A stretch of DNA of 64,000 nt from Bacillota bacterium (lineage in GTDB: Bacteria; Bacillota; Clostridia; Christensenellales; UBA1431): positions 45,701-109,700 of the forward strand of contig JBMOLJ010000017.1 of assembly GCA_049324235.1 (NCBI GenBank), read 5' to 3'. The notes beneath the pieces are model-generated. The model did no database searches. It saw only the letters and a program-made list of their open reading frames with translations, and had not been told where the DNA came from. A program made the position numbers and the translations under genes. Of the stretch, positions 19,915-38,920 are shown piece by piece; the first letter of the stretch is position 1; each line of letters opens with the position of its first letter.

Positions 19915-21321
19915 ATGAATGCTTTTGCCGTACGCGCGGGATATCTGCTCCCGCATCCTCCCATAATCGTTCCCGGGGTCGGCGGGGGAAGGGAAACTGA
20001 GGCAGCTAAAACGATCGCTTCCATGGAAAGAGTGGCGGAGGAAATCGGACGGCTGCGTCCCGATACCGTCGTGCTGCTTTCCCCGCACGCGCCGGTTTTC
20101 AGCGATTATGCGTTCATGTACGATGCGCCTGTACTGAAAGGGGACCTGAAACAGTTCGGCACAAATGCCGAAGTCTCTTTTCATCAGGACAGCGCGTTGC
20201 GCGTGGAGATTGAGCGCCGGATGCAAGCAAACGGCATACCGGGCGGCGCGCTGGACGAATCGGTGATGCGCAGGAATCAGATCAAAAACACGCTTGATCA
20301 TGGCGCCGTGGTTCCGCTGTATTTTGCCGGGGCGAAATACAGCGGATTCAAGCTCGTCGTGCTGTCGGCGCCGGCGCTGGACATGCAGATGCTCTACAGG
20401 CTGGGGTACGTGATACGGGAAGCGGCTGAAGCTCTGGGCAGGAAGATTGCGGTCGTTGCCAGCGGCGACCTCTCGCACAGGGTCAATGCAGAAAGCCCGT
20501 ACGGGGCCTGCCCGGAAGGAGAACAGTTCGACAGTTTTATCAACGGTTCGCTGGAGGCTAACGATATTCCAAGGCTGCTGTCCGTTGACCATGCCCTGAG
20601 GGAGAAGGCGGGAGAGTGCGGCTACCGCCCGCTGGTCATGCTTTGCGGAGCGTTTGACGGGGTCAGGGCCGGTATACAGGTGCTGTCCTACGAAGCGCCG
20701 TTTGGCATCGGCTACGGCGTAGCAGCGTTCAGGCCCGTGGCCTATAGCGGTACCAGCGCGTTTGATGAGGCGCGGACGATGATTTCGAAAGGCAAAAACG
20801 AAAGCATGCATGTGCGGATAGCCCGTAAAACGCTTGAGAGCTATGTTCGGGACGGCAGGACGCCTGAACCTAAAGATTTCTTGGAATACGGAGAGGATGC
20901 GGGAATTTTCAGCCAACCGGCAGGCGTGTTCGTGTCCATCAAAAAATTCGGGGAGCTTCGGGGATGCATCGGTACTACGGGACCAACCACGGATTCCGTA
21001 GCGGAAGAGATCATCCAGAACGCGGTCAGCGCCGGTACGCGCGACCCGCGTTTTCCTCCTGTGACCGCCGACGAACTGGAATATCTGGATTACAGCGTCG
21101 ATGTGTTGAATCCGCCGCAGCCTGTTTCGTCCAAGGATGAGCTGGACCCTTCGGTGTACGGCGTAATCGTAGAAAATGGCTATCGAAGGGGCCTGCTCCT
21201 GCCCGATCTCGAGGGCGTGGACACCGTGGAAAGGCAGCTTGAAATCGCCTGCAAGAAAGCGGGAATAGACCCTGAGGGGGAATATGAAATTTCGAAGTTC
21301 ACCGTTACGAGATACAGGTAG
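19915..21321 (+). CDS. Fusion protein: class-III extradiol dioxygenase subunit-B-like (LigB/Memo superfamily) domain plus an AMMECR1 domain (AmmeMemoRadiSam system protein A-like)
   Basis: N-terminal half: [32 protein letters not shown]-terminal half: [18 protein letters not shown]...RDPRFPPV...[18 protein letters not shown], which are AMMECR1 hallmarks. Confidence 0.8.
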
Positions 21322-21338
21322 AGCGGGGTGAGATGCGT

Positions 21339-22196
21339 ATGAAACAGGCCATGTATTATGAAAAAATGGATGAAACCATGGTCAAATGCATGCTCTGTCC
21401 GCACGGCTGCCGTCTAAAGCCCGGACAGACGGGGATTTGCCATGCGCGCAAAAACATTGACGGCGACCTGTTTTCCCTGAACTATGGAAAGGTAACAGCT
21501 CTTGCGCTCGACCCGATAGAGAAAAAGCCGCTGAAGCGGTTTTTCCCCGGGAGCATGATTCTTTCGGTCGGGAGCTTTGGTTGCAACCTCAAATGCTCTT
21601 TTTGCCAGAATTGGCAGATATCCCAGTCGGAACAGGCTGGTAGGGACGCCACGCCCGAAGAACTGGCAGCGGCGGCGCAAAAGGCGGCCGATGCCGGAAA
21701 CAACATCGGGTTGGCGTATACCTACAACGAGCCGTCGATCTGGTATGAATTCGTATACGAATGCGCCGCGTTGGCGCATGAGCGCGGCCTGAAAAACGTT
21801 TTGGTCACCAATGGCTATATATCCAAAGAACCTATGGAGATGCTTCTGCCTCACATCGATGCAATGAATATAGATCTGAAATCTATGACCTCCGGGTTTT
21901 ACCGCAGCCTGTGCAAAGGGGAGATTGGGTTCGTGCAGGATACAATCAGGCTGTGCGCCGATGCCTGCCACGTCGAGGTGACGACCCTGCTCATTCCAGG
22001 GGAAAACGATTCGGAGGATGAGGTACGCGCCCTGTCTCAATGGCTTGCGTCGGTTTCGCCGGAGATTCCGCTGCACCTGACGAGATACCATCCCGACTAC
22101 AGGATGGGAAAACCGCAGATGGAAAGGGAAAGGCTGTTTGACCTGGCTGAGATTGCGGGGAAAACCCTGCGCTATGTTTTCTGCGGCAACGTTTAA
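21339..22196 (+). CDS. AmmeMemoRadiSam-system radical SAM enzyme (PflA-like activase family)
   Basis: N-terminal Cys-rich KCMLCPHGCRLKPGQTGICHAR and the radical-SAM CNLKCSFCQNW (CxxxCxxC). ATG at 21339 after GGGGTGAG, 18 nt after the upstream stop. Confidence 0.8.
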   Translation: MKQAMYYEKMDETMVKCMLCPHGCRLKPGQTGICHARKNIDGDLFSLNYGKVTALALDPIEKKPLKRFFPGSMILSVGSFGCNLKCSFCQNWQISQSEQAGRDATPEELAAAAQKAADAGNNIGLAYTYNEPSIWYEFVYECAALAHERGLKNVLVTNGYISKEPMEMLLPHIDAMNIDLKSMTSGFYRSLCKGEIGFVQDTIRLCADACHVEVTTLLIPGENDSEDEVRALSQWLASVSPEIPLHLTRYHPDYRMGKPQMERERLFDLAEIAGKTLRYVFCGNV

Positions 22197-22304: not shown

Positions 22305-22333
22305 TTGACATCCTGCGTTGCTGTTACTATATT
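22305..22333 (+). promoter_or_regulatory. Promoter of the kinase-HAD-kinase operon
   Basis: TTGACA (22305-10), 17-nt spacer, TATATT (22328-33). Confidence 0.6.
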
Positions 22334-22341
22334 ATAATTAC

Positions 22342-22364
22342 ATTCAGTATTCTGAATAATGAAT
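22342..22364 (+). promoter_or_regulatory. 23-bp palindromic operator, copy 1
   Basis: In ATTCAGTATTCTGAATAATGAAT, 10 of 11 symmetric positions pair (ATTCAnTATTC-N-GAATAnTGAAT). It starts 9 nt after the -10. The 24-nt string cattcagtattctgaataatgaat is identical at 26478-26501. Confidence 0.7.
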
Positions 22365-22503
22365 CAATATACGCTATGTGCGTATTTGTAAAGTCGGTTT
22401 TGCCACATAAAGGTTGTATACCAGATTCAAAAGGTACAATTACGGCAAGGGTGCTCAAAAAACCGGAATGATTTTGCTCCAATAAATTAAAGGAGGACTT
22501 ATC

Positions 22504-24039
22504 ATGGCGAAGTACTATGTCAGTTTTGATTGCGGTACGCAAAGCACAAAAACGGCGATTTATAGGGATGATACGGTTTGCATTGCGGAGGAGTCCATAC
22601 CGACCATAATCAACTATCCTGTCGCCGGATGGGCGGAGATGGACGCCGATCACTATCTGCAATCGGTGCGGGAGGGCATCAAAAGTTGCCTGCAAAAGAG
22701 CGGGATCGACCCGAACGATATCCGCGCCATCTGCGGCGACGGCATCATCTGCGGAATCGTAGGCGTGGACGGGGACGGAAATGCGATCACGCCGTATATT
22801 CCTTATCTGGACTCACGCGGGGCCGAGGACGCAAAATGGATCAGGAACAACCTGGAGCCGATATGGATTGAGGAAAGCGGAAACGCCATTGTTGACGCGT
22901 TCGAACCGCCGGTGATAGCGCGCTGGCTGATCAAAAACCATGATGAGTTCAAAAAGCGCGGCGCAAAGGTCCTGAACAACGGGCCGTACGTCCTGTCGCG
23001 TCTTGCAAAGCTGAAAGCCGAAGATACCTTTATCGATTGGGCTACGCTTTCGGGGTGGCTGATCGGCTATGACGCGGCTGCGAAAACCTGGTCCAGGAAG
23101 CAGATGGACAGCCTTGGCATCCCGATGAACCTGCTTCCCAAAATCGTTAAGCCATGGGACATCGTAGGGACGCTTTGCGCCGAGGAAGCAGCGCTTATAG
23201 GCCTGCCTGCAGGCATCCCCATTGCAGCGGGTGCGGGTGATACCATGCAGTCCAACTTGGGCTGCGGGCTGGTCGAGGCAGGGATGGCCGCCGACGTTGC
23301 CGGAACGGCGGCGATGTTCACGGTCATGGTTAACGGAATCAACGAAAACCTGAGCCGCAATTCCGGGCTGTTCTATTCCATCGGCACGCTGCCCGACACC
23401 TACTTCTATTGGGGGTACATCCGTACAGGCGGCCTGTCATTAAGGTGGTTCAGGGATAATGTCTGCAAAAGAGAAGGGGACAACACATTCTACGATGAAA
23501 TCCAGGAAGCAGCCAAAAACGTTCCTGCAGGTTCGAACGGCACGCTGTTCTTCCCGTACCTGCAGGGCGGGAGCGGCAGCCTGGAAAATGCCAGCGGCTG
23601 TTTCGTCAATCTGACAACCGCTTCCGACCGCGGGGAAATGTGGAGGGCAATACTCGAATCGATCGCGTACGAGTATCTGTCCCAGGCCGACAGTATGAGG
23701 GCGCATGGCATTGGCATCGACCGCGTGATCATCACGGAAGGCGGGAGCAAAAGTGACCTGTGGAACCAGATCAAGGCCGACGTGTTCGACGCCAAAACGC
23801 TCACGCTTACCAGGGCGGAAGGGGCCGTAATGGCCAACGCCCTCGTTGCCGCCTATGCGGTGGGGGATATACCGGACCTGAAAAAAGCCGTTGTCGAACA
23901 GGTTGCGATTAAAAACACATATTCGCCTGATACGGAAAACACGAAATACTACAGAAAGGCGTTTGAACTCCAGCAAAAACTCATCAGGGAGAAAATGACC
24001 GGGGCGTTCGACAGCCTCGCCGAACTCAGGAGAATTTGA
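22504..24039 (+). CDS. FGGY-family carbohydrate kinase (paralog 1)
   Basis: N-terminal SFDCGTQSTK (actin-fold phosphate-1 motif), GWAEMD, GAGDTMQ and the C-terminal FGGY_C pattern ITEGGSKSDLWNQIKADV. AAAGGAGG RBS. Confidence 0.85.
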   Translation: MAKYYVSFDCGTQSTKTAIYRDDTVCIAEESIPTIINYPVAGWAEMDADHYLQSVREGIKSCLQKSGIDPNDIRAICGDGIICGIVGVDGDGNAITPYIPYLDSRGAEDAKWIRNNLEPIWIEESGNAIVDAFEPPVIARWLIKNHDEFKKRGAKVLNNGPYVLSRLAKLKAEDTFIDWATLSGWLIGYDAAAKTWSRKQMDSLGIPMNLLPKIVKPWDIVGTLCAEEAALIGLPAGIPIAAGAGDTMQSNLGCGLVEAGMAADVAGTAAMFTVMVNGINENLSRNSGLFYSIGTLPDTYFYWGYIRTGGLSLRWFRDNVCKREGDNTFYDEIQEAAKNVPAGSNGTLFFPYLQGGSGSLENASGCFVNLTTASDRGEMWRAILESIAYEYLSQADSMRAHGIGIDRVIITEGGSKSDLWNQIKADVFDAKTLTLTRAEGAVMANALVAAYAVGDIPDLKKAVVEQVAIKNTYSPDTENTKYYRKAFELQQKLIREKMTGAFDSLAELRRI

Positions 24040-24102: not shown

Positions 24103-24798
24103 ATGAAGGTTGCCATTTTGGATTTCGACGGAACGCTTTTTGATTCTGCGCCGTTCTGGGAGAATACGATCAATACCTTTTTGCTGGAGCGGAACATCAC
24201 GCCGCCTCAGGACATTCTGGGCATTGCAAAACCTCTCGGCATCAGGGGCTGCGCGGAGCTGTTCAAAGAAAGGTTTGATATACCGGATGATACCATGGAG
24301 ATCGTGACTGCCTGGCGGTCGGAGGTAGGTAAGAACTACCGGTATACCATACCGCTCAAGGAATATGCCCGTGAGTACATCAATTATCTTCTGGACAAGG
24401 GGATCAAGGTCTGCATGGCAACGGCCATGGAACGGGAATTTTTCACCCCCGCCCTCATCCGCACGGGCATCTATGATCTTTTTGAACTGATCGTCACCAT
24501 CGAGGATGTAAAGGCGGACAAGAACAGCCCGAAGATATTCCTTCACTGTGCGGAGCATTTCGGGGTTACTCCCGCGGATTGCACCGTATTCGAGGATTCC
24601 TACAAAACCGCAGAAATCTGTCAAAAGGCAGGCTTTCATGTGATAGGCGTGGACGACGGCGTGTGCAAGAGCGATTTCGAAAAGATGCAGCCGTTTTGCG
24701 AGAGGTATATTTTCTCGTTCCGCGAATTGCTGGACGGGTATGAACCTGCGCCCAACATAGAAATGGAGCGGGCCAAAGATGCTATTGACGTTCTATAA
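24103..24798 (+). CDS. HAD-IA superfamily hydrolase (phosphatase / beta-phosphoglucomutase-like)
   Basis: Motif I DFDGTLFDS, motif II ATAM, and motifs III/IV K...FEDS. TAAGGAGAG RBS. Confidence 0.8.
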   Translation: MKVAILDFDGTLFDSAPFWENTINTFLLERNITPPQDILGIAKPLGIRGCAELFKERFDIPDDTMEIVTAWRSEVGKNYRYTIPLKEYAREYINYLLDKGIKVCMATAMEREFFTPALIRTGIYDLFELIVTIEDVKADKNSPKIFLHCAEHFGVTPADCTVFEDSYKTAEICQKAGFHVIGVDDGVCKSDFEKMQPFCERYIFSFRELLDGYEPAPNIEMERAKDAIDVL

Positions 24799-24858
24799 CT
24801 GAACAAAAATTTGTCAACGATACAAAAGTGCCTGATAAATTGAATAGGAGGAATGGTT

Positions 24859-26415
24859 ATGCCTAAGTATGTGGCAGGAATTGACGCCGGTACGACAGGG
24901 ACGACAGTGATGATAGCGGACACCGCGGGAAACGTCGTTGGGAGCGCATACAGGGAATATGCCTGTATTTACCGGCATCCTGGCTGGGTGGAGCAGGATA
25001 TGAATGCGATTTGGACGGCGATATGCGAAGCTTCCAGGGAAGCGATCGCGAAAACCGGCGTGGACCCCAGGGATATCGGTTCATTGGGCTTATCCAGCCA
25101 GCGCGGGACCTTTGCGGCCATAGACAGGGACTGGAACGCGCTGCATGATTCCATCGTGTGGTGTGACATGCGCGCGGGCGAGGAAGTGGAGTGGATAAAG
25201 AACAATATCGGCGCCGACAGGTTCCACGATATTACCGGCCTGCCCCTTTCAGGGCTGTGGTCTTTCGCCAAATTCAAGTGGGTGATGGACAAAAATCCCG
25301 AAATCTATGAAAAGGCGTGGAAGTTTGTAAACGGGCAGGAATGGTTCCTGCACAAGCTGGGTTCCGAGGTGCTTTTCTCCGATCCCGCATCGCTGACGAT
25401 GAACGGTATGATGGACATCTCCAAACTGCAATGGTCGGACGAGCTTTTACACGCTATCGAATTTGATACGGACAAGCTGCCTCCTATTTCCACGCCGATG
25501 ACGCAAATGGGCGTGATTTCCAAACAGGCGGCTGAAGCAACGGGCTTCGCGGAGGGCATGCCGATCTGTTCGGGCGGGGGCGACCAGCAGTGCGCGGCCA
25601 TTGGTTCGGGCGTTATCCGCGAGGGGCTTTCGGAAATAACGATCGGGACATCCTCGGTCATGGTGGCGCATGTGGACAGCAGCAAGCCCGACCCGGACCA
25701 GGCCGTTTTCTTTGGGGGTCATGCCATACCGCACAAGTGGGATATGGAAGGCGGCGCTTCCTCATCGGGCGTAAACCTGCGGTGGTGGAGAGATACATAT
25801 GCGCAGGCTGAAATCGGCCTTGCAAAGTCCATGGGGACAGACCCCTATGAGCTGATCGGCATGCAGGCCGAGAAAGCGCCGGTCGGCTGCAAGGGCTATA
25901 TGGTTTTCCCGTTCATGACAGGGCAGGTTACCCCGTATTATGTTGACAACGCGCGGGGCGGATCCCTCGGGCTTTCCCTGATACACGACCGCTCCATGAT
26001 GGCGCGTGCGGTCATGGAAGGCGCGGCCTTTGAACTGCGCATGATCGTAGCCGCGATGGAAAAGGTGCTGGGCAAGCCGTTTGACGCCGTCAGGCTTTCG
26101 GGCGGCGGAGCCAAGTCGCCGTTATGGTGCCAGATACAGGCGGACATGTACGGAAGGCCTGTCGAGCAGCTCAGGACGCAGGAGTGCACCACGCTCGGAG
26201 CGGCCATACTGGGCGCTGCGGGAGCCGGTTTATTCGCGGGCATAGAGGAAGCGGTTGAAAACATGGTGCATCCGTTCGGTATGATTGAACCGAATATGTC
26301 CAATCACGGAATATATACCGACATGTTTGAAATTTTCAGGAACGCTTTCCTGGCGCTTCGCGACGCGAATGTATATAATGATCTGGCTGCGGTGTCCGCA
26401 AAACATTGGGGCTAA
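24859..26415 (+). CDS. FGGY-family carbohydrate kinase (paralog 2)
   Basis: Motifs GIDAGTTGTT, GWVEQD, SQRGTF, GGGDQQCAAIG and LSGGGAKSPLWCQIQADM. I prefer the ATG at 24859, 7 nt after AGGAGG; the track start at 24853 abuts the RBS. Confidence 0.85.
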   Translation: MPKYVAGIDAGTTGTTVMIADTAGNVVGSAYREYACIYRHPGWVEQDMNAIWTAICEASREAIAKTGVDPRDIGSLGLSSQRGTFAAIDRDWNALHDSIVWCDMRAGEEVEWIKNNIGADRFHDITGLPLSGLWSFAKFKWVMDKNPEIYEKAWKFVNGQEWFLHKLGSEVLFSDPASLTMNGMMDISKLQWSDELLHAIEFDTDKLPPISTPMTQMGVISKQAAEATGFAEGMPICSGGGDQQCAAIGSGVIREGLSEITIGTSSVMVAHVDSSKPDPDQAVFFGGHAIPHKWDMEGGASSSGVNLRWWRDTYAQAEIGLAKSMGTDPYELIGMQAEKAPVGCKGYMVFPFMTGQVTPYYVDNARGGSLGLSLIHDRSMMARAVMEGAAFELRMIVAAMEKVLGKPFDAVRLSGGGAKSPLWCQIQADMYGRPVEQLRTQECTTLGAAILGAAGAGLFAGIEEAVENMVHPFGMIEPNMSNHGIYTDMFEIFRNAFLALRDANVYNDLAAVSAKHWG

Positions 26416-26438: not shown

Positions 26439-26466
26439 TTGACATACGCGTATATATAATTATAGT
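26439..26466 (+). promoter_or_regulatory. Promoter of the RuBisCO-like protein gene
   Basis: TTGACA (26439-44), 16-nt spacer, TATAGT (26461-66). Confidence 0.55.
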
Positions 26467-26478
26467 ATAAAAAGCAGC

Positions 26479-26501
26479 ATTCAGTATTCTGAATAATGAA
26501 T
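26479..26501 (+). promoter_or_regulatory. 23-bp palindromic operator, copy 2
   Basis: ATTCAGTATTCTGAATAATGAAT, identical to 22342-22364. It lies 13 nt after the -10 and 23 nt before the RLP start codon. Confidence 0.7.
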
Positions 26502-26524
26502 TAATTGTTAAGGAGGAGCATGGT

Positions 26525-27841
26525 ATGAGCGGCAAAAGGAATTACGATCCCATTATTTTCTGCCAGTATGAATCACTGAATATGGAAGATTTCGTGGTAG
26601 CGACGTATCTGATGAGCGCGGAGACCACAGACGTATTGATGCGCGCGGGCGCAGTGGCTGTGGAGCAAACCACCGGCACGTGGGCGCGCGTCCCCGATGA
26701 AACGGAAGAGGTCCGGCAAAAGCATGTCGGGCGCGTAATTTCCGTGTATAACATTCCCGGCTACGAGATATCCTGCCCGGACAGAATCCGTACCTGCATC
26801 GTACAGATAGCATTCCCGTGGAGGAACTTCGGACAGCAGATGCCCGAGATGCTTTCCAGCGTTTTCGGAAACATCTCCCTCGTTGACAACCTGAAACTGC
26901 TTGACCTGTATTTCCCCAAGAGCTTTGTGGATGGGTTTAAGGGGCCGAAATTCGGGACGCAGGGCCTTAGGGACTTGCTCGGCATCCAGGACCGCCCGCT
27001 GACCATGGCCATGATCAAGCCCTGCACCGGTATACCCGTTGATGTTATTGAGCGCCAGTTCTATAATCTGGCCGTTGCGGGCGTCGACATCATAAAGGAC
27101 GACGAACTCATCGCCGACCCCGTGCATGCCCCGTACTATGAGAGGCTGGAAGCCTGCCTCCGCGCATCCGACAAGGCTTTTAAAGAGACCGGTAAGCGCA
27201 CGATTTATTTCCCCAACATAACCGACCGTCAGGACAGGATGTTTGAAAAGGCCCATAAGTCCATCGAGATGGGGGCACAGGCGCTGATGATCAACGCGCA
27301 TGCGTCGGGTTACGGCTGCCTGACTGCGCTCTCCTGCGACGAGAGCATCAACGTCCCGCTGCTTGCACATCCCTGTTACGGCGGCGCATCCTTCCTGAGC
27401 CCGACAACGGGAATGTCTTCAAGCCTGGTGTTTGGCAAATACATGCGTCTGGAAGGAGCCGACATCGTTGTTTACAACTGCGCATACGGAAAGGTTCCGG
27501 GTCTGGTCGACCGCTATGTGCGCATAGGGCAGAGCCTGCTCTCCAAATTCTATGACCTCAAACCGGCATTCCCGAGTCCGGCAGCAGGACTCCATCCCGG
27601 TATGGTACCCACCGTTATGAGCGATCTTGGACCGGATACCCTTCTCGGAGCCGGTGCAGGCATGCATGCGCATCCGATGGGCATGAAGGCCGGTATTGAC
27701 GCGCTTTTGCAGGCTGCAGAGGCTTGGAAGCTGAATATCCCGCTGGAAGAGTACGGCAAGGATCACCCCGAGCTTCAGGCGGCACTGGACATCTGGGGCG
27801 TTTATGACCCCCATAAGAGCATCTTCGAATTAACCAAATAG
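26525..27841 (+). CDS. RuBisCO large-subunit-like protein, form IV (RLP); not a carboxylase by motif content
   Basis: It aligns by eye to RbcL: EQTTGTWA (ESSTGTWT), VFGNIS (GNVFGF), DRPLTMAMIKPCTG (IKPKLG, second Lys replaced by Cys), AGVDIIKDDE (GLDFTKDDE, with the carbamyl-Lys/Asp/Glu triad kept), AHPCYGG (H327 region). There is no GKLEG loop-6 lysine. PSPAAGLH replaces PVASGGIH. Confidence 0.85.
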   Translation: MSGKRNYDPIIFCQYESLNMEDFVVATYLMSAETTDVLMRAGAVAVEQTTGTWARVPDETEEVRQKHVGRVISVYNIPGYEISCPDRIRTCIVQIAFPWRNFGQQMPEMLSSVFGNISLVDNLKLLDLYFPKSFVDGFKGPKFGTQGLRDLLGIQDRPLTMAMIKPCTGIPVDVIERQFYNLAVAGVDIIKDDELIADPVHAPYYERLEACLRASDKAFKETGKRTIYFPNITDRQDRMFEKAHKSIEMGAQALMINAHASGYGCLTALSCDESINVPLLAHPCYGGASFLSPTTGMSSSLVFGKYMRLEGADIVVYNCAYGKVPGLVDRYVRIGQSLLSKFYDLKPAFPSPAAGLHPGMVPTVMSDLGPDTLLGAGAGMHAHPMGMKAGIDALLQAAEAWKLNIPLEEYGKDHPELQAALDIWGVYDPHKSIFELTK

Positions 27842-27851: not shown

Positions 27852-27889
27852 GAAAGCGTGTGCTTAACGTACACGCTTTCGCTTTCTTT
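27852..27889 (+). terminator. Intrinsic terminator after the RLP gene
   Basis: gaaagcgtgt-gcttaacgt-acacgctttc followed by gctttcttt. Confidence 0.7.
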
Positions 27890-28084: not shown

Positions 28085-28194
28085 ACAAATAATCAAAACG
28101 ACATATCGGCAATCCCCATTTTCATATGAAGCATTGGCAGCGATAGCTCCGATAAATATATTTTCCCAAAAAAATAATACAGGAGGTTACTACA

Positions 28195-29715
28195 ATGGCG
28201 AAGTACATTCTTGGTATCGATGACGGGCTCACCAATTCCAAGGCGGTATTGTTCACGCTCGACGGAAAAGAACTGGGTTCCGCGAGCAGGCATTTTGAAG
28301 TGAGCAGCCCCAAACCCGGCTATGTTCAGGCCGATCCGGTTCAGCTTTGGGAGAACACCGCGGACTGCATCAAGGAGGTTATTGAAAAGACCGGGGTTGA
28401 CCCTGCTGAAATCGGTGCGATCGGCGCTACCGGATTCGGAAATGGCGCTGTCTTTATCGCAGCCGACGGGTCTCCCGCGTATGCTGCTTTTGGCTCGAAC
28501 GACGGCCGTGCCGTCGATATAGCGCAAAGGCTGAACGATTCGGGTGCGGGCGCTGAGATTTTCAAGATCAACGCGACGGGCGCCGGGTCGTGGCAGCCCT
28601 TGACCCAGGCGCTCTGGCTGAAAGAAAACGAACCCGAGGCGTATGCCAAAATCGATTGGCTCTGCCAGTGCAAAGACTGGATCAATTTCAAGCTTACCGG
28701 TAACCGGATGACAGAAAAGAATGACGTTTCGGGCGCCGGATATATCGATTTTTCCACGGGTGAATACAACAAAGAAATATTCTCGCTGTACGGTGTGCCT
28801 GAACTGGCCGATAAGGTTGCCCCCATGGCGGAGTTCAGCCACTCGATCGTCGGTACTGTCAACGCAGAGGCTGCAAAACGCACAGGCCTCAAGGAAGGGA
28901 CGCCGGTCGGCGCAGGCATGATGGACGTTGCGGCCTGCAGCATCGGAACCGGCGTTATCGATGAAAAATATGCGTGCGTCATTGTGGGAACATGGTCCAT
29001 AAACCAGGTGATCATCGATCGTCCCCTCCCGAACATGACCTCCGTGCAGTTCTTTGATCTGCCCGGTAAAATTCTGAGCCTTTCCGGATCGGCAACTTCC
29101 GCTACAAACGTCGAATGGTTTGTCACCGAGTTCGGACAGGGATGTGCTGTGGAAGCCAAGGAGCGCGGGATATCGAAATACGATATAGTGACGGAAAAAG
29201 CCGCAACCATCCCCGCCGGCGGAACCAGCGTGCTGTATCTGCCGTTCATCGGCATGCCCAACGTCCATGCACGCGGACGCGCAGGCTTCTCCAACATTGC
29301 CATGGGCCATACGTTTGCCGACCTGGCGCGCGCCCTGTTTGAAGGGATCACCTTCGAGCACAAGCGCCACATCGATATCATCAAGAGCCAGGGAGCATCC
29401 GTCACGGCTGTCCGTCTGGCAGGCGGCGGAGCGAAGAGTCCGTTCTGGAGCCAGATGTTTGCCGATATCCTCGAAGTGCCGGTCGAAGTGGTCGGGGTTG
29501 CAGAACTCGGAGCGCTTGGTACGGCCATTGCCGCGGCTCTCGGCGCCGGAATCTACAAAGACTATGACGAGGCGCTCGGGAAGGCGGTTGAAATCAAGAA
29601 GACGTTCTATCCCATCGCCGAAAACACCAAGGCATATATGAACCGTTACAAGAGCTGGCAGGCTTTGGTGCAAACGATGATCGCCGGTTGGGATAAGGGT
29701 GGAATCGAACCGTAA
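28195..29715 (+). CDS. FGGY-family carbohydrate kinase (paralog 3), L-xylulose/3-keto-L-gulonate kinase (LyxK)-like
   Basis: Motifs [40 protein letters not shown] (compare E. coli LyxK WLKEHEPERYAQIG...DYLRWCLTG, as I recall it), [10 protein letters not shown] and [29 protein letters not shown]. Confidence 0.85.
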
Positions 29716-29744
29716 GCAAGGTGCTATTGCTGGAATCCTGGCTG

Positions 29745-29773
29745 GGCCGCCGTAACAAACACGGCGGCCTTTT
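29745..29773 (+). terminator. Intrinsic terminator after kinase 3
   Basis: ggccgccgt-aacaaac-acggcggcc followed by ttttgcg. Confidence 0.8.
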
Positions 29774-29902
29774 GCGTAGGGCTTTTCATATACAGCCCTC
29801 ACCACACACGGGGAATGATTCGTGCGGCGTTTTGACAGCAAGGACATATATGTTATAATGGACAATAGATGAATTTGCAAATGAGAAGGAAAAAATCACA
29901 GT

Positions 29903-30835
29903 ATGACTATGAAATTACTGACCAAACAGGGCGAGATCGTTGCAAAGCTGGCAAGACAGCTTCTTACGGTTTCACCCGGGTATCGCCTGCCCAGCGTAAG
30001 CGATTACTGTAACATGTTTTCCGCGGGCGCCGGCACTGTGCACGCCGCCTTGCGCACGCTTACAAATTCCGGGGCGATTGAGCTGGAGATTCATGGTCAT
30101 CAGGGGACGGTAATTACGGGTCTCAACCGCATGATCCTTTGGAAATTCAGCCTGAACACGCTGTTTTACGGAAGTATGCCCCTGCCGTACACATCAAGGC
30201 TGCAGGGCATGGCTACCGCGATATACGAGCAGTTTGAGGAAGCGGGCATCCCGTTCAGCCTTGCATATGTGCGGGGCGGCCGCATGCGCATCCAGAGGCT
30301 GCTGGACAAACACACGGATTTTGCCGTCTGCTCCCGACTTACCGCCAGGCTTGCGCGAAAAGAGTATCCGGAGCTTTTTACGGTGATGGATTTTGGGCAC
30401 GAAAGCTATCTCACCCACAGCATGCTGGTTTTCTCAAAACCAGGCATCACCGCCATTGAGGACGGCATGCGCGTAGGCGTTGACGAATCCTCCTATGACC
30501 ATCCGGAGCTGGTAAAGGTTGCCAGCCGCGGCAAAAACGTGACGTTCGTACCGCAAAGCTATAACCAGATCATATCCAAGATACGAAAAGGCGAAATTGA
30601 CGCTACGGTATGGAGCCTTGATGAAATCGAGGAAAAGTATCCGGGGCTGAACATGGTGCCCGCTGAAAACTCGGAAGAAATGAAATCCATTACCTATGAG
30701 AGCGCCTGCGCGGTCATACTCATCCGCGAGGATACGAAGTTCTGCGCGTCTATTCTGCGCGAGGTGCTTGATCTGGAAAAACTCAGCAGGATACAAAAAG
30801 AGGTCATGGACGGGCACAAGACGCCGTCATATTAA
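29903..30835 (+). CDS. YhfZ-type transcriptional regulator (GntR-like winged HTH plus a periplasmic-binding-protein-like C-terminal domain)
   Basis: The N-terminal region LPSVSDYCNMFSAGAGTVHAALRTLTNSGAIELEIHGHQGTVI is a GntR-like wHTH. The roughly 230-aa C-terminal domain has an alternating beta-alpha pattern, as in E. coli YhfZ (family assignment from memory, not from a search). Confidence 0.6.
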   Translation: MTMKLLTKQGEIVAKLARQLLTVSPGYRLPSVSDYCNMFSAGAGTVHAALRTLTNSGAIELEIHGHQGTVITGLNRMILWKFSLNTLFYGSMPLPYTSRLQGMATAIYEQFEEAGIPFSLAYVRGGRMRIQRLLDKHTDFAVCSRLTARLARKEYPELFTVMDFGHESYLTHSMLVFSKPGITAIEDGMRVGVDESSYDHPELVKVASRGKNVTFVPQSYNQIISKIRKGEIDATVWSLDEIEEKYPGLNMVPAENSEEMKSITYESACAVILIREDTKFCASILREVLDLEKLSRIQKEVMDGHKTPSY

Positions 30836-31051: not shown

Positions 31052-32542
31052 ATGGCGGAGAATACGAACAGACTGGGTTACCTGATGGAAATGCTGGATA
31101 TTTCGGGCAAGGAATTGGCGCAGGCGCTGACCGTCGATGCAACGACGGTCAGCAAATGGAAGAACAACCAGCGCAAGCTGACATACAAATCAAAGTATAC
31201 CCGGAAAATCGCAGGGTACTTCCTTAACAGCGCAATGCAGAGCAAGCGCGGGAAGATCACCGCCCTGCTCACAGCATACATGCCGGAGCTGAATATTGGC
31301 AGCGAGCATCAGCTCGTCGATGCGCTATGCCTTTGGCTGACCGAAAAGGGAACCGAACCGCCGGTGATGGTCGGGAGCACATCCGTAAACAGGTTTGCCC
31401 CTGAAAACGGCTATGTCGCCAACGTAAGGGTCTATACCGGCTATAAAGGGATAATGGAGGCGCTGGCGACATTCTGGGAATACACATTAACGCTTCCGTA
31501 CGGACAGGAAATACTCCTTGCAGATTACAGGGATATCAATTTTGACGAACAGGACCCGTCCGACATCGTCCGCATGATGAAGTTTTTCATTGACGCCGCA
31601 GAATACGGGCATACGATAAAGATCATCGACTGCGCTACGGATGTATTCAGGCCTTATGTGGCCATATTCCGCTGGCTGCCGATGTATCTTTCGGAAAATG
31701 TTCAAGTCTGGCGCTATCAGGATTTCATGAAGAGGGAGACCCGCATGAGCACCTTTGTATTGCCGGGGGAAATAGTGCTTAGCAGCTTTGCGGTTGACAC
31801 GTTGCCGGGAGTGCACCACAGCATGATATTTCATGACAGGGATACCGTCCGTTTCATGGAAGACAGCGTGCGTGCGATTCTGGCAAACTCCAAAAAAATG
31901 ATAGAGACGATTAAAGCCGCGGATGTATTGCGAATGCTGGAGATACTCGACGGCCATCTGAAGTCGCGGCAGCTCACGTACATGCTCAACCCCGTCCCTA
32001 CATTCAGGAATATGCCAATAAGACTGCTCAGGGAGATACTCGAAGAAAACGGAGTGGAGGAAGGCATCATTAGCATATGCTTGGAGGCAAACCGGAGAAC
32101 GCGCGCGGTCAGGGACCGGTGCAGATATATACAGATTTACGATCTGGACGCTATGGAGGCCCGGGTGCACAGCGACTTTATTGTCGATTACGACCTGTCG
32201 GCCATATGCGGCAAAAGGATAACGGTTCCGAAAGCATGCTATAAAAGGCATTTGGAATACCTGCTGGGCATCAAAAGCTCGGAAAACTATTCCATGACAA
32301 TGACATCGTTTTCAGCGCTCGGGCTGCTGTCCACCACGATAAGCATCATCGTCCAGGATGACAGCCTGGTCGTGGCCTGGGATCCGGAGCGGTATCCACG
32401 GAGGATGTACTGCATGGACCTTCAGGTGATAAACGGTTTTTATACGTATATCGAGGACCTTTGGAAAGCGATACCTCCTATTTGCAAGGATGACGGCTGG
32501 AAGTGCAAACAGCTCAACAGAATGATACAGATGCTGACATGA
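31052..32542 (+). CDS. XRE-family HTH regulator with a large uncharacterised C-terminal domain
   Basis: The N-terminal region LGYLMEMLDISGKELAQALTVDATTVSKWKNNQRK is a Cro/C1-type HTH. I could not assign the remaining roughly 430 aa. Confidence 0.7.
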   Translation: MAENTNRLGYLMEMLDISGKELAQALTVDATTVSKWKNNQRKLTYKSKYTRKIAGYFLNSAMQSKRGKITALLTAYMPELNIGSEHQLVDALCLWLTEKGTEPPVMVGSTSVNRFAPENGYVANVRVYTGYKGIMEALATFWEYTLTLPYGQEILLADYRDINFDEQDPSDIVRMMKFFIDAAEYGHTIKIIDCATDVFRPYVAIFRWLPMYLSENVQVWRYQDFMKRETRMSTFVLPGEIVLSSFAVDTLPGVHHSMIFHDRDTVRFMEDSVRAILANSKKMIETIKAADVLRMLEILDGHLKSRQLTYMLNPVPTFRNMPIRLLREILEENGVEEGIISICLEANRRTRAVRDRCRYIQIYDLDAMEARVHSDFIVDYDLSAICGKRITVPKACYKRHLEYLLGIKSSENYSMTMTSFSALGLLSTTISIIVQDDSLVVAWDPERYPRRMYCMDLQVINGFYTYIEDLWKAIPPICKDDGWKCKQLNRMIQMLT

Positions 32543-32580
32543 TTGGCGAAAAATTGGCATAAAAAATTAAAATAAATATA

Positions 32581-32609
32581 TTGACAATACGTTGGCATGA
32601 GTTTATACT
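32581..32609 (+). promoter_or_regulatory. Promoter of the amine-utilisation-like operon
   Basis: TTGACA (32581-86), 17-nt spacer, TATACT (32604-09). Confidence 0.65.
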
Positions 32610-32654
32610 GTCTGTAATCACTGAGGGAATTAGAAAAAGCAAAAAACGGCAATG

Positions 32655-32729
32655 GCGTCTTTGGAGCAGAAGCTCCCAAAGGCGCTTTAATTGTTTACAA
32701 GGGCGTAAAAACACATTACGCCCTTTTCC
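32655..32729 (+). promoter_or_regulatory. Leader with a 13-bp hairpin followed by an intrinsic terminator (candidate attenuator or riboswitch of unknown class)
   Basis: Hairpin gcgtctttggagc-agaa-gctc(c)caaaggcgc (32655-85), then aagggcgtaa-aaacaca-ttacgccctt followed by ttcctatt (32699-32729). This lies about 85 nt upstream of the permease ATG. Confidence 0.5.
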
Positions 32730-32814
32730 TATTGGTTACGATCCTTCCAATGGCGGGAGATTTTAATCATATACACATTATTTTCAACCATCATGAAGGA
32801 TTGGAGGTTTTTTT

Positions 32815-34245
32815 ATGGCAGGGACGAAGAAATTAGGCCTGTTCAGTGCGGTAAGTACATGCGTCGGGCTGATTGTAGCGACGAGCTGTCTGGTATCTTT
32901 GGGAACAGGGTCCGGTTTGGCGGGGGCCGGGTTTGCTATACCGTTGGCGATAGCGGTTGTCCTTAACATGTTTATTGCGTTATCATTCGGAGAACTTCAT
33001 GCCATGATGCCCAATGTTACCGGAGGCATGGGACAATATACCGCGACGGCGCTGGGACCTGTTCCGTCCATTATTTCGAACATATCGGCGTACGTGTTCT
33101 GCATGGCGTTTGCGGCAAGCGCGGAGGCCGTGATGTGCGGACTTGTTTTTACGCAGGCCTTTGCGCCGGACTGGAACCCGTTGGTTGTGAGTACGGTGGT
33201 AACGCTGATACTGCTGGCAGCCAACTTCAGAGGGATCGACATGTTCGCAAGGATACAGAATGTGACCGTTACGCTGCTGATCGGCTCGCTGGCTGCGCTC
33301 GCGATCCTAAGCTTTTTCATGATTGCGCCCGGTCAGCCTGTGACTACGGTGGAAACCCCGGCGATTACCGGCTTTGGCGATCTCGCAGGCCTGGCCGCAA
33401 TCGGATTCTGGCTGTTTATCGGTGTTGAATTTGTAATACCGATTTCCAAGGAACTACGCAATCCCAAGAGGGACGTTTTGCTCGCTATGGTTATCGGCCT
33501 CGTCGTATTGTTTGTGGTACAGCTGCTCTTAGGGATCGGTATGACCAATTATGTTCCCCTTTCCGTACTTTCCTCGGAAGCCATGCCCCATATAGTGTTT
33601 GCGCAAAGCCTTCTGGGTGATGTGGGCAAGTACTGGATGGGAATTATTACGTTGCTTGCCGGCGTCAGTACGCTCAATACGGTGCTGGCCAGTTCGACCA
33701 GGATCACAGCAGGAATGGCGGAAGGCGGCATGCTTCCCAGGTTCTTTGCAAAGGAGAACAAAAAGGGAGTACCCTTTGGAGGCTTGCTCTTGCTTACCGG
33801 AAGCATACTGGGCATTGTCCTAACGGGCCTTGGGAACTCTGCTGACCTGATCACTATGATTCTCACAGGCTCCTGCTTCTGGCTTGTTTCCTATATTATT
33901 ACGCATGTTAACGTACTGGTCCTGAGAAGAAGGTATCCGCAGCGCGCGGCGGCGTGGAAGTTCAAGCTGTTTGGAATACCGCAGATAATAGGGATTATCG
34001 GCTGTGTGTATATGATTATCAACATCAGCCCGGATCCGGATGCCAAGACCATAATATTTACGGTATTCGGCATAGCGCTCGGGTTGCTCATTACCTATGC
34101 AACGGTCTGGACCAAGTTCGTTATGAAAAAGGGCATTTTTGAGCACGTTCCCATCGAGGCGGTCATTGCAGGAGGGCCGGTTGGCAGGGAAATGGATGAG
34201 CCGGAAACGCAGCCTGGTGTTGCCGCGGGCAAGAGCGCCATATAA
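32815..34245 (+). CDS. APC-superfamily amino acid/amine permease
   Basis: 476 aa with about 12 hydrophobic segments and an APC-type N-terminus (LGLFSAVSTCVGLIVATSCL). GGAGG RBS. Confidence 0.85.
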   Translation: MAGTKKLGLFSAVSTCVGLIVATSCLVSLGTGSGLAGAGFAIPLAIAVVLNMFIALSFGELHAMMPNVTGGMGQYTATALGPVPSIISNISAYVFCMAFAASAEAVMCGLVFTQAFAPDWNPLVVSTVVTLILLAANFRGIDMFARIQNVTVTLLIGSLAALAILSFFMIAPGQPVTTVETPAITGFGDLAGLAAIGFWLFIGVEFVIPISKELRNPKRDVLLAMVIGLVVLFVVQLLLGIGMTNYVPLSVLSSEAMPHIVFAQSLLGDVGKYWMGIITLLAGVSTLNTVLASSTRITAGMAEGGMLPRFFAKENKKGVPFGGLLLLTGSILGIVLTGLGNSADLITMILTGSCFWLVSYIITHVNVLVLRRRYPQRAAAWKFKLFGIPQIIGIIGCVYMIINISPDPDAKTIIFTVFGIALGLLITYATVWTKFVMKKGIFEHVPIEAVIAGGPVGREMDEPETQPGVAAGKSAI

Positions 34246-34268
34246 GCAGTTTAGAGGAGGTGGAAAAA

Positions 34269-35633
34269 GTGGTACTGGATATTTTAACGGGTGCGGAAAT
34301 GCTTACGCATGACGACGTAAAGCAACGGATAAAAGAACAGGATATCGAAATGATTCGGCTCGAGTACACGGACATCCTGGGCGTAAACCGGGGCAAAATG
34401 ATGCCGGCGGAGATGATCGATGAGGTATTCGAAAAAGGCATATGCTTCGGCGCGGGCACCTTGTGCATGGGCTTTAACAACAGCGTGGCCCTTAGCCAGG
34501 GATTTTCAGAGACCATAGATGATATGAAAGTCATTGCGGACCCGTCGACCTTCGTCGTACTGCCGCACGAGGATAAGACTGCACTCATCATAGGCGACCT
34601 GTATTATCTGGGAAAGCCCATGAATCAGTCTCCAAGAGTGTTTTTAAAGAAGATCGTTTGGGAGTACCATAAGCTGGGATTTGACCCCATCGCGGCAAGT
34701 GAAGTTGAGTTTTTCGTCTACAAAAAGCAGCCTGAAGGCGGGGTGGCTCCCTACACAAACCAGCTTGCAAACTGTTATACCAGCAATAAAAGGATCGATC
34801 CATTGGGATTTCTATCCAAGCTTACCAAGACGTTTAAAAACATGGATTTCAATGTGCTCTACATGAACCACGAGTATTATCCCGGCCAGTTTGAATACAA
34901 CTGGTCGCACGCAAAGGCCGTCCGCTGCGCCGATGAAACGGCGTTGTTCAAGAGCCTGAGCAAGGATATTGCGGACATGAACGACATGATGGTTACCTTT
35001 ATGGGCAAGCCCAAATTATCCGAAGGCGGGAGCGGCTGCCATTTCCATATTTCCCTCAACGATCTGGAAACAGGAAAAAACGTTTTCGGCGATGTGCAGA
35101 AGGATGACGGCATTGCGGACATCATGAAGCATTTTATCGGGGGAATCTGCAAGCACGCGCTGCCGCTGACGGCTTTCCTGTCGCCGACCGTCAACTGCTA
35201 CAAGCGGTACCAGCCCGATTCCTTCGCGCCTATCTATGTGGGCTGGGGCTATGACAACAGGACGACGTACATCCGCATCCCGCAGGAGCGCGGGCAGGCG
35301 ACACGCGTTGAGGTCCGCGCTGCAAGCGCGGCAACCAACCCTTATCTGGCCCTTGGAGGAATACTGGCCGCCGGACTGGATGGAATCGTAAACAGGATTG
35401 AGCCTCCCGGCGTGATAGAAGGGGACTTCTATCACGATAAAGAGCACGCGAAGGAAGTAGTGCCCCGGAGCCTGTTCAGGGCGATCTCGTTGCTGGAGGA
35501 GGACGAATGGTTCTGCGATTGCGTGAGCAGGGAACTGATCGATGCTTTTGTCAAGTTGAAGAACCTTGAGATCAGCGACTTTACCAAATTTGTTACGGAC
35601 TGGGAATGGAATACGTATTCGTACCATATTTGA
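34269..35633 (+). CDS. Glutamine synthetase-family ligase (gamma-glutamyl-amine synthetase-like; GmaS/PuuA-like)
   Basis: GS catalytic-domain motifs: EVEFFVY, GSGCHFHISL, NCYKRY, NRTTYIRIP, NPYLALGGILAAGLDG. I prefer GTG at 34269, 8 nt after GAGGAGG; the track start is 34260. Confidence 0.8.
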   Translation: MVLDILTGAEMLTHDDVKQRIKEQDIEMIRLEYTDILGVNRGKMMPAEMIDEVFEKGICFGAGTLCMGFNNSVALSQGFSETIDDMKVIADPSTFVVLPHEDKTALIIGDLYYLGKPMNQSPRVFLKKIVWEYHKLGFDPIAASEVEFFVYKKQPEGGVAPYTNQLANCYTSNKRIDPLGFLSKLTKTFKNMDFNVLYMNHEYYPGQFEYNWSHAKAVRCADETALFKSLSKDIADMNDMMVTFMGKPKLSEGGSGCHFHISLNDLETGKNVFGDVQKDDGIADIMKHFIGGICKHALPLTAFLSPTVNCYKRYQPDSFAPIYVGWGYDNRTTYIRIPQERGQATRVEVRAASAATNPYLALGGILAAGLDGIVNRIEPPGVIEGDFYHDKEHAKEVVPRSLFRAISLLEEDEWFCDCVSRELIDAFVKLKNLEISDFTKFVTDWEWNTYSYHI

Positions 35634-35660
35634 TGGATTTTAAGTGGAGGGGAAACGGAT

Positions 35661-37270: not shown

Positions 37271-37275
37271 GACAG

Positions 37276-38583: not shown

Positions 38584-38602
38584 TGGTCGGAGTGTGTCGT
38601 TT

Positions 38603-38914
38603 ATGAGGATACAGCAGCATCCAATTCTGAAAACATTCGATAAAGGAAAACGCGTCGCCTTTGAGTTTGACGGCAAGGCAATGGAGGGATACGAGGGCGA
38701 ACCGGTCGCCGCCGCATTGCGGGCGGCAGGCGTGATGACCCACCGTCATACCACGCGTTTTGGCAATCCACGGGGAATCTTCTGCGCGATAGGCAGGTGT
38801 ACGGACTGTGTGATGGTGGTGGATGGGAAACCCAATATGAGAACCTGCGTAACGCCGCTTCGCGAGGGTATGAAGGTCGAGACACAATTTGGAGCGGGTG
38901 CGAAAAAGGGGTAG
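38603..38914 (+). CDS. Small (2Fe-2S)-binding subunit, HcnA / sarcosine-oxidase-alpha N-terminal-like
   Basis: Motifs FEFDGKAMEGYEGEPVAAAL and GIFCAIGRCTDCVMVVDGKPNMRTCVT. ATG at 38603 after GGAGTG; the track GTG is at 38594. Confidence 0.75.
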   Translation: MRIQQHPILKTFDKGKRVAFEFDGKAMEGYEGEPVAAALRAAGVMTHRHTTRFGNPRGIFCAIGRCTDCVMVVDGKPNMRTCVTPLREGMKVETQFGAGAKKG

Positions 38915-38920
38915 GCGTTT

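Follow-up and report, generated by a model that had tools for sequence, protein, structure and literature searches.

A clade of RuBisCO-like proteins that retains the loop-6 lysine and lacks the distal phosphate residues, encoded among FGGY kinases in a Christensenellales genome

A 64,000-nucleotide stretch of DNA from a Bacillota bacterium of the Christensenellales (UBA1431; assembly GCA_049324235.1, contig JBMOLJ010000017.1, positions 45,701 to 109,700 of the forward strand), here called the window, encodes at 26525–27841 a protein of 438 amino acids that is a genuine RuBisCO-like protein (RLP) of the RuBisCO large-subunit superfamily. It belongs to a clade that, among the RLP sequences examined, is the group keeping the loop-6 lysine, its glutamate partner, N123 and a closing C-terminal tail; this clade is a variant within a known superfamily and not a separate kind of system. 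The residues for enolisation and metal binding are conserved in the protein, and the three residues of the distal phosphate site of ribulose-1,5-bisphosphate (RuBP) are replaced. Because the distal site is lost and kinases of the FGGY family adjoin the gene, its probable reaction is the rearrangement of a phosphorylated sugar and not CO2 fixation. Unless a strand is given, all features lie on the plus strand.

Both RuBisCO large-chain domains of Pfam were matched by the translated open reading frame (ORF) (E 4e-40 and 1e-12), RuBisCO_large_N (PF02788) with 48.6 bits against a cut-off of 20.7 and RuBisCO_large (PF00016) with 138.3 bits against 30.1. An AlphaFold2 (AF2) model of the protein has a pLDDT of 94.6, and all of its top 50 Foldseek matches are RuBisCO or RLP chains, with the MtnW enzyme of G. 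kaustophilus first at a TM score of 0.86, the MtnW structures together spanning 0.84–0.86, the C. tepidum RLP next and form III RuBisCO after that, an order that repeats the relationship seen in the sequences. The protein is identical to the public entry MFZ5974104.1 from a Bacillota metagenome-assembled genome (MAG), and its nearest homologues reach up to 90% identity. Its 90% cluster is made up of proteins from Christensenellales MAGs, of which those named by JGI are called 'DK-MTP-1-P enolase'.

The active site was compared with spinach RbcL, using a reference identical to PDB 8RUC/1IR1 on which the canonical numbers land on the right residues. Two mappings, a MAFFT L-INS-i alignment with 120 homologues and an independent hmmsearch of a clade profile against the spinach protein, agree at every key position. 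The segment EQTTGTW (26663–26683) supplies E47, T52 and W53 for E60, T65 and W66; N116 (26870–26872) stands for N123, in the column of the catalytic Lys98 of MtnW, and is Asn in 119 of 120 homologues. The segment M-I-K-P-C (27011–27025) keeps K175 as K165 and replaces T173 with M163 and K177 with C167. In KDDE (27095–27106) K191, where carbamylation is expected, corresponds to K201, and the metal ligands D193 and E194 to D203 and E204, all three being invariant in 120/120. Further along, HPCYG (27368–27382) retains H294 as H282 but has P283 and G286 in place of R295 and H298, and the end of strand beta6 with loop 6 (27470–27493) runs from V316, which replaces H327, to K323 of AYGKVPG, the counterpart of K334. 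At A353-A354-G355 (27581–27589) S379 and G380 have become alanines and G381 is kept; G403 survives as G377, and G404 has become A378. Across the 120 best homologues, which extend down to 46% identity, E60, M173, K175, C177, K201, D203, E204, H294 and K334 are found in every sequence. Judged from these aligned residues, the proximal phosphate site (T65, W66, G381, G403) is retained and the distal site (R295, H298, H327) is gone.

An earlier, sequence-only reading of this DNA had described an active site with its metal triad kept and its carboxylation residues lost, and about half of its motif assignments stand. It had correctly placed the E60, T65 and W66 equivalents in EQTTGTWA and N123 in VFGN, recognised K175 followed by a Cys at the K177 position (IKPCTG aligns without a gap to IKPKLG), located the putatively carbamylated Lys and the Asp/Glu ligands in IIKDDE, and noted PAAGLH where RuBisCO has ASGGIH. 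Three other assignments do not survive alignment. The His of AHPCYGG had been taken for H327, but it aligns with H294 (LLAHPCYG against LLHIHRAM), and the H327 column holds V316. The segment LMINAHASG, which had been placed at the H294–R295 pair, is out of register and corresponds to spinach 264–273; the loss of R295 was right (P283), and that of H294 was not. The loop-6 lysine had been declared absent, whereas K323 in AYGKVPG aligns ungapped with K334 in VVGKLEG, is Lys in 120/120 homologues, and falls between strand 314–318 and helix 328–339 of the AF2 model, which is the beta6–alpha6 loop. A proper alignment therefore reveals a K334 equivalent, the outcome that the reading itself had named as refuting its claim that K334 was lost.

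The broader statement that carboxylation residues were lost fails in the same way, since E60, N123 and K334 are all present, are conserved throughout the clade and co-vary with the C-terminal tail. Loss of the phosphate-site residues holds for the distal site and not for the proximal one. The proposal of an RLP that does not use RuBP and keeps its metal and carbamate site is supported by K175, K201, D203, E204 and H294, and a metal-stabilised enediolate formed on a differently phosphorylated substrate is a fair inference from the pattern of proximal residues kept and distal residues lost. Once corrected, the residue pattern is arguably of greater interest than it was as first described.

The clade extends far beyond this genome. 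Among scored candidates the window RLP alone has 915 relatives at E<=1e-20, and 50%-identity clusters are many. The clade is widespread in anaerobic Bacillota, in Synergistota and in MAGs of Desulfobacterota type, with some archaeal MAGs besides, and its members are routinely mis-named MtnW. In 167 loci sampled from species-representative genomes and metagenomes, three related groups are seen. Group A (E60/N123/C177/K334) includes the window RLP and members from Lachnotalea glycerini, Moorella thermoacetica, Eubacterium barkeri, Clostridium drakei, Desulfosporosinus, Desulfomonilia and a Baldrarchaeota MAG; group B (G60/N123/C177/G334) occurs in Lactonifactor, Faecalicatena, Anaerobium and Micropruina; and group C is the MtnW type (G60/K123/(V,M,C)177/S334) of Paenibacillus and Geobacillus. 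Rough neighbour-joining (NJ) trees on BLOSUM distances place MtnW as sister to groups A and B together. The signature of the clade, namely E60, N123, M173, K175, C177, K201, D203, E204, H294 and K334 with a tail of ~14 residues, is found complete in the window RLP (ETWNMKCKDEH..K, with the tail GVYDPHKSIFELTK). Full-text literature searches, which did not cover the classic RLP reviews and so leave room for an earlier naming, returned no description of such a clade; the RLP functions given in a review of 2023 are confined to those of enolase, isomerase, decarboxylase and oxygenase (PMC10176493), and large RuBisCO surveys filter RLPs out (PMC12663927).

The Cys at position 177 had been singled out as an unusual variant. 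It is real, and no characterised RLP with such a residue set was found in the literature searched, from which the key RLP reviews were missing, but Cys177 is a hallmark of the clade and not a peculiarity of a single gene: among 223 distinct E60/N123/K334 sequences, counting proteins and loci, the position is Cys in 219, Asn in three and Ser in one. It also occurs in the sister group that lacks K334 and in the Alicyclobacillus RLP 4NAS (FKACAG). As the residue is invariant in groups A and B apart from rare Ser or Asn in group A, and is V, M or C in MtnW, a polar role for Cys167, for instance through a tuning effect on K165 or a contact with the substrate, seems likelier than that of an obligatory thiolate base.

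The retained lysine does not travel alone. When RuBisCO closes, the loop-6 tip brings K334 into a pair with E60 from the other subunit, and the loop is covered by the C-terminal strand. Among 96 full-length representatives of 50%-identity clusters, E60 and K334 occur together in 23 and K334 without E60 in none, counts that are not phylogenetically independent. The tail follows the same division: its median length is 14 residues in the 15 representatives that have E60 and K334 but an incomplete RuBisCO signature, and 4–4.5 residues in RLPs without K334. In group A the ~14 residues past the last conserved Trp carry a conserved aromatic-acidic/small-aliphatic motif (in the window RLP GVYDPHKSIFELTK, 27797–27838, a block with a pLDDT of 86 that is conserved in the E60/K334 clade), whereas proteins of groups B and C end 3–5 residues past that Trp. 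Given that E60, K334 and the tail are retained jointly, and given the closed state of RuBisCO, the clade appears to keep the whole closure apparatus, all three elements of which the MtnW-type proteins and group B have dropped together.

MtnW is the closest characterised homologue (G. kaustophilus 2OEK/2OEM and B. subtilis 2ZVI; ~36–37% identity, E 1e-83, TM 0.86), and one reading, in line with the JGI/IMG annotation of members of its cluster, is that the window RLP is a true MtnW, the DK-MTP-1-P enolase of methionine salvage. The best NCBIfam, PDB and Foldseek matches are indeed MtnW, and members of the 90% cluster of the protein bear that JGI name. The two proteins are of the same length class with the same loop lengths, have K175, K201, D203, E204 and H294 in common, and are both often accompanied by a HAD phosphatase. 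They also show the same losses at R295 (Pro), H298 and H327 (hydrophobic), and thus both are likely built for a monophosphate. However, the catalytic Lys98 of MtnW is Asn in the window RLP, the Gly of MtnW at E60 is Glu, and its Ser at K334 is Lys; T173/K177 are Met/Cys against Ile/(Val, Met, Cys), and MtnW has no 14-residue tail. Lys98 of the G. kaustophilus enzyme is reportedly the base that takes the C1 proton (work of Imker and colleagues, 2007); our alignment reproduces the published numbering K98/K147/K173 and puts N116 in the K98 column.

Scores and gene context separate the two in the same direction. The window RLP falls below both MtnW equivalog cut-offs (362.8 against 409 for NF007095; 322.8 against 513.6 for TIGR03332) and groups apart from the MtnW clade in the rough NJ trees. 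Its neighbours are FGGY kinases, which occur in 0/30 MtnW-type loci, and not mtn genes; a tblastn search with 20 gene families linked to MtnW-type RLPs found no match in the 64-kb window, which thus shows no methionine-salvage neighbourhood (MtnX-type HAD, MtnB, MtnA, MtnK, MtnD). Identity as a true MtnW is accordingly very improbable, and as a practical rule for annotation, Asn against Lys at N123 together with FGGY against mtn context separates the clade from MtnW. The Alicyclobacillus acidocaldarius RLP 4NAS, deposited as MtnW, shares the Cys at K177 and has 37% identity to the window RLP, but its other signature residues (G60, K123, S334), its short C-terminus and its place in the rough trees are those of the MtnW clade; to our knowledge this protein, whose structure is solved, is biochemically uncharacterised.

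A divergent but genuine RuBP carboxylase of form III kind would account for the presence of most catalytic residues, K334 among them, and form III proteins (T. kodakarensis 3A12, P. horikoshii 2CWX) are the next-best relatives in structure and sequence after the RLPs. They share with the window RLP E60, T65, W66, N123, K175, K201, D203, E204, H294, K334, G381 and G403 as well as the length of loop 6 and a C-terminal extension. The window RLP nonetheless lacks K177, T173, R295, H298, H327 and S379, and these replacements are invariant; the complete set for binding RuBP is interrupted at C167, P283, G286, V316 and A353 clade-wide. The protein also has another gene context, scores far below the RuBisCO models (247.6 against 497 for the type III model TIGR03326, 235 against 438 for PRK04208 and 122 against 489 for PRK13475), and is placed by the rough NJ trees among RLPs and not with RuBisCOs of full signature, so that a true carboxylase of RuBP is hardly credible here. 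A few relatives that keep K177 do fall inside the group A neighbourhood of these trees. The cluster representatives P0127, P0144 and P0149 (and P0134, P0131), near the clade, combine K177 with E60, N123, K175, K201, H294 and K334 but have lost R295, H327 or both, and could be intermediate forms that connect form III RuBisCO with the RLP clade.

The neighbourhood of the gene points to sugar phosphates. Three kinases, one phosphatase and the RLP are packed into 8 kb. FGGY kinase 1 (FGGY1; 511 aa, 22504–24039, assigned by Pfam and below all NCBIfam equivalog cut-offs), a HAD-IA sugar-phosphatase-like protein (231 aa, 24103–24798, with its DxD in MKVAILDFDGT) and FGGY kinase 2 (FGGY2; 520 aa, 24853–26415) precede the RLP gene, and FGGY kinase 3 (FGGY3; 506 aa, 28195–29715) and a YhfZ-type GntR regulator (310 aa, 29903–30835) follow it, the last three assigned by Pfam and NCBIfam. 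The kinases have 24–29% mutual identity and all lie within 4 kb of the RLP. Neither TIM nor RpiB nor a dehydrogenase partner of the RLP is found in the window. A 595-aa antisense ORF overlapping FGGY3 (28093–29880, minus strand) was disregarded as spurious; further long antisense ORFs are present around the RLP region.

The linkage to kinases recurs in relatives. An FGGY kinase lies within 7 kb of the RLP in 16/20 non-redundant close loci, the other four being contigs of 1.9–5.9 kb, and one is present in 32 of the 52 wider-clade loci. Each of the window kinases has orthologues that adjoin related RLPs elsewhere. Those of FGGY1 (46–80% identity), the commonest kinase type for the clade, adjoin the RLP in 13/20 loci, often accompanied by SorC and DUF1097 (in Lachnotalea glycerini, L001, the order is SorC-FGGY1-DUF1097-HAD-RLP), and HAD orthologues are found in 11/20, always with FGGY1 where the contig permits. 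FGGY2 has orthologues (52–72%) in six loci (including L005, L045, L087, L092 and L153), sometimes with a glyoxalase/VOC gene. In the closest relatives (L084, L168–L170) the RLP cluster includes a 79% orthologue of FGGY3, and YhfZ, present in 7/20 loci, has an 80% orthologue adjoining the RLP in L084; this FGGY3/YhfZ cluster adds two SDR-family genes, two 2-hydroxyacid dehydrogenases and a class II fructose-bisphosphate (FBP) aldolase. Elsewhere in group A the RLP is accompanied by FGGY and a class III aminotransferase, to which some loci add a class II aldolase or an MtnX-type HAD; by FGGY with a GlpA-like DAO/BFD dehydrogenase, Pyr_redox_2, DUF1667 and SorC; by PTS EIIC with GlpA/GlpB-like genes; or by PEP_hydrolase with UPF0261 (Moorella type). 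Of these partners, the polyol-phosphate-oxidising GlpA-like DAO/BFD genes, PTS EIIC, the class II aldolases and the SDR/2-hydroxyacid dehydrogenases with the FBP aldolase are what ketose-phosphate catabolic clusters are made of.

Two variations of this arrangement were seen in passing. In the Moorella-type loci (L004, L109, L126, L134, L136, L141, L142 and L147), with the signature H-L-A-V-K-F-G-G, PEP_hydrolase (PF09370) paralogues and UPF0261 flank the RLP instead of FGGY, a partner set that is likewise uncharacterised. Caproiciproducens faecalis (L015) has two group A RLP genes, at 4151–5470 and 9992–11311 of its locus and ~4.5 kb apart, in one cluster with FGGY, SorC and GlpA-like/DUF1667 genes.

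Group B loci hold TIM (6/10) and RpiB (7/10) besides FGGY and G3P-dehydrogenase-like genes. The Brucella erythritol pathway consists of an EryA/B/H/I set and EryC, a tetrulose-4-phosphate racemase (PMC11508834). The group B set matches EryA/B/H/I and is without an EryC-type racemase, which suggests by analogy that the group B RLP may fill that role; EryC is a functional analogue only, of unrelated fold, and the analogy comes from the group B context and does not extend to the window RLP. Loci with such a set are L039, L019, L038, L072, L051 and L026, and their RLPs are without the C-terminal tail.

There is reason to think, from the conserved residues and the FGGY linkage of close relatives, as well as from the polyol-phosphate-oxidising genes, PTS EIIC, aldolases and dehydrogenases near others, that the window RLP may be an isomerase or epimerase in which a carbamate and Mg2+ drive the enolisation of a kinase-made ketose monophosphate that is then re-protonated. 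This is the reading we favour, and we rate its chances at about even. The enzyme would be a RuBisCO-like protein of homodimer type in which carbamylated K191 binds Mg2+ together with D193 and E194. A ketose monophosphate, the product of the adjacent FGGY kinases, would bind with the phosphate beside its carbonyl in the retained proximal site (T52, W53, G355, G377), and the carbamate/K165/H282 system would take the proton alpha to the carbonyl to give an Mg2+-bound cis-enediolate, as in the first step of RuBisCO. Because Asn stands at the position of the MtnW base Lys98, proton abstraction should follow the RuBisCO-type and not the MtnW route. Loop 6 (K323) with E47 of the partner subunit, and the C-terminal tail over it, would close on the intermediate. 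Re-protonation of the enediolate at the other carbon or face would then yield an isomer with a shifted carbonyl or an epimer, and the product might pass to central metabolism, be cleaved by an aldolase in those relatives that have one, or be dephosphorylated by the HAD protein. Family membership, the residue pattern with its conservation and covariation, the gene linkage and the shared operator-like repeat are observed; that K191 is carbamylated, what class of substrate binds and that isomerisation results are inferred. A bisphosphate substrate made by two of the kinases was considered and is judged unlikely, P, G and V having taken the places of the three distal-phosphate residues.

Such chemistry has precedents. 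It would be akin to a side reaction of RuBisCO itself, mis-protonation at C3. It would also resemble that of the R. rubrum RLP, a 5-methylthioribulose-1-phosphate 1,3-isomerase in which a ketose-1-phosphate is enolised and re-protonated with its carbonyl moved (PMC5893883), and all characterised RLPs form an enediolate (PMC10176493). The DeepYkr RLPs of R. rubrum and R. palustris are thus the best functional analogy, although they are distant in sequence (3QFW, E 2e-31). The R. rubrum, C. tepidum and OiaC/OiaX RLPs could be compared indirectly, by way of E-values against PDB entries, scores against NCBIfam models and cluster representatives that bear no label. We take 3QFW and the short RLP clusters to be DeepYkr, with no named sequence as anchor; these presumed DeepYkr clusters keep E60 and N123, as the window RLP does, but are shorter (~370–395 aa against 438) and have Ala at 173, a gap at 177, and His and Arg in the columns of E204 and K334. 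Their signature, ENAK-K.DHHPxIR, is not that of the window RLP (ENMKCK.DEHPGVK).

Several observations weigh against the isomerase reading. None of the kinases reaches an NCBIfam equivalog cut-off, their NCBIfam and PDB matches being sub-threshold and XylB-, GntK-, LsrK- or GlpK-like only, and the PDB entries nearest to them are of uncharacterised or generic kind. It is not obvious why simple isomerisation should call for K334, E60, N123 and a tail that closes over the site, and K334, E60 and the tail are the very features missing from the more racemase-like sister group. A strongly linked HAD phosphatase would be unusual in a catabolic route and would be better explained by a logic like that of MtnW and MtnX, and several genomes carry the kinase, HAD and RLP genes alone, with no visible downstream enzyme. 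Carbamylation, metal binding, the dimer and loop closure, too, are carried over from homologues. The phosphate of AI-2 (DPD) was also entertained as a substrate on the strength of the LsrK-like scores and a diketone analogy, and was dropped because the scores are at most half the LsrK cut-off.

The phosphatase suggests a second reading, in which the RLP would work as MtnW does on another substrate: it would tautomerise a diketo- or keto-sugar phosphate made by FGGY1, and the HAD protein would dephosphorylate the enol-phosphate to an aci-reductone or diketone, giving a module for salvage, detoxification or formation of a small molecule and not a catabolic isomerase. Besides the closeness of MtnW, the coupling of RLP and HAD argues for this, since an MtnX-type HAD phosphatase accompanies the RLP in 30/30 MtnW-type loci and a HAD phosphatase does so in 11/13 FGGY1 loci, and loci without the HAD (L005, L087, L097) carry a glyoxalase/VOC gene instead. 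In L070 and L076 the HAD clusters with the HADs neighbouring MtnW, presumably of MtnX type, and an aminotransferase is present; stand-alone modules of kinase, HAD and RLP also fit. On the other hand, the base of MtnW, Lys98, is replaced by Asn, the window HAD belongs to the HAD-IA sugar-phosphatase subfamily apart from the MtnX-type cluster, no diketone-making dehydratase is conserved in the module, and the HAD is absent in relatives at 90% identity. We regard this reading as possible but rather unlikely.

The retained closure apparatus raises a third reading, in which the enediolate of a ketose monophosphate would be carboxylated and cleaved, for example to 3-phosphoglycerate (3-PGA) and a non-phosphorylated hydroxy-acid, or a beta-keto-acid phosphate would be decarboxylated, with E60, N123, K334 and the closing tail put to use. 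All of E60, N123, K175, K201, D203, E204, H294 and K334 are kept; K334 was never found without E60 in the 96 representatives, and outside bona fide RuBisCO signatures it goes with the ~14-residue tail. The K177-keeping P0127, P0144 and P0149 belong to the same rough clade, direct cleavage to 3-PGA would explain the modules that have no downstream enzyme, and the closest relatives have 2-hydroxyacid dehydrogenases in their clusters. D-apiose catabolism moreover includes RLPs that decarboxylate or transcarboxylate (PMC6302742, PMC10176493), where OiaC and OiaX, a 3-oxo-isoapionate-4-phosphate decarboxylase and a transcarboxylase/hydrolase, act on a monophosphate downstream of a dedicated kinase and set a precedent for CO2 chemistry by an RLP (PMC6302742).

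Against this, K177, T173, S379 and H327 are replaced, the score against the OiaX model NF042437 is 165.8 bits where the cut-off is 700, and a CO2-dependent step has no direct support. The partner kinases differ as well: the apiose pathways use acid-sugar kinases, whereas those of the window are of the FGGY type, which as a rule act on neutral sugars or polyols. To judge from the class II FBP aldolase encoded near the RLP in its closest relatives, C–C cleavage falls to another enzyme. A (de)carboxylating RLP is therefore improbable on present evidence, and we attach a similarly low probability to the wider proposition that the clade is a monophosphate-specific, CO2-handling relative of RuBisCO that has kept the apparatus for CO2 addition and closure (N123, the E60–K334 pair and a C-terminal latch), has discarded only the distal-phosphate site and K177, and could carboxylate and cleave, or else decarboxylate, an enediolate derived from a ketose 1-phosphate supplied by the kinases.

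Putative transcriptional signals link the RLP gene with the FGGY1 operon in this genome. A promoter-like TTGACA-N16-TATAGT (26439–26466, no more than a match to the consensus, at 11/12 positions) precedes the RLP gene, whose start codon has the Shine–Dalgarno sequence AAGGAGG 8 nt upstream, and a terminator-like 12-bp stem-loop with a T-rich tail (27852–27880) lies directly 3' of the stop codon. A second promoter-like site (22305–22333) lies 5' of FGGY1, and a third, with a 12/12 consensus match, 5' of the YhfZ gene (29832–29859). Just 3' of the first two stand the copies of a 28-nt repeat, CATTCAGTATTCTGAATAATGAAT(C/T)AAT, with copy 1 at 22341–22368 and copy 2 at 26478–26505; the copies are identical at 27/28 positions, contain the perfect palindrome TTCAGTATTCTGAA and may be operators. 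At zero mismatches the window holds no further copy of the repeat, and shuffled sequences never reached the observed repeat count. The placement of this putative operator after the promoters of both the FGGY1 operon and the RLP gene supports a common regulator, support that is limited to this genome because the palindrome is absent from all 167 related loci. An Rfam scan found no riboswitch or leader within the RLP cluster.

Other parts of the window deserve mention in their own right. A fluoride riboswitch (12610–12672, Rfam 52.6 bits) lies directly 5' of an ORF for a dynamin-family GTPase (12705–14492, Dynamin_N), an unusual pairing; a T-box leader (10850–11073) precedes a prolyl-tRNA synthetase gene (11095–12564), and a NiCo riboswitch (44981–45075) precedes an ORF of 847 aa (45163–47706). 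At 19915–22196 a radical SAM protein (287 aa) is encoded after a fusion of LigB/Memo-like and AMMECR1 parts (468 aa), an arrangement that looks like an AmmeMemoRadiSam-type trio with two of its parts fused. Downstream of the RLP region a separate cluster (31052–41968) encodes a 496-aa protein with no Pfam or NCBIfam match, an APC permease, a glutamine-synthetase-like gene and GATase_6, GXGXG, Glu_synthase, Pyr_redox_2/4Fe-4S and DAO domains, and resembles systems for amine utilisation of the gamma-glutamyl-amine or N-methylglutamate type.

The functions known for RLPs are a handful, namely enolase, 1,3-isomerase, decarboxylase/transcarboxylase and oxygenase (PMC10176493). A system of three kinases, a phosphatase and an RLP could yield a new sugar-phosphate pathway, and it could show what purpose K334 and loop closure serve where CO2 is perhaps not a substrate. 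Should the clade after all handle CO2, kinase and RLP would form a self-contained two-step pathway, and the clade would represent a still extant stage that links RLP isomerases to true RuBisCO. The clade thus bears on how carboxylation arose from RLP chemistry.

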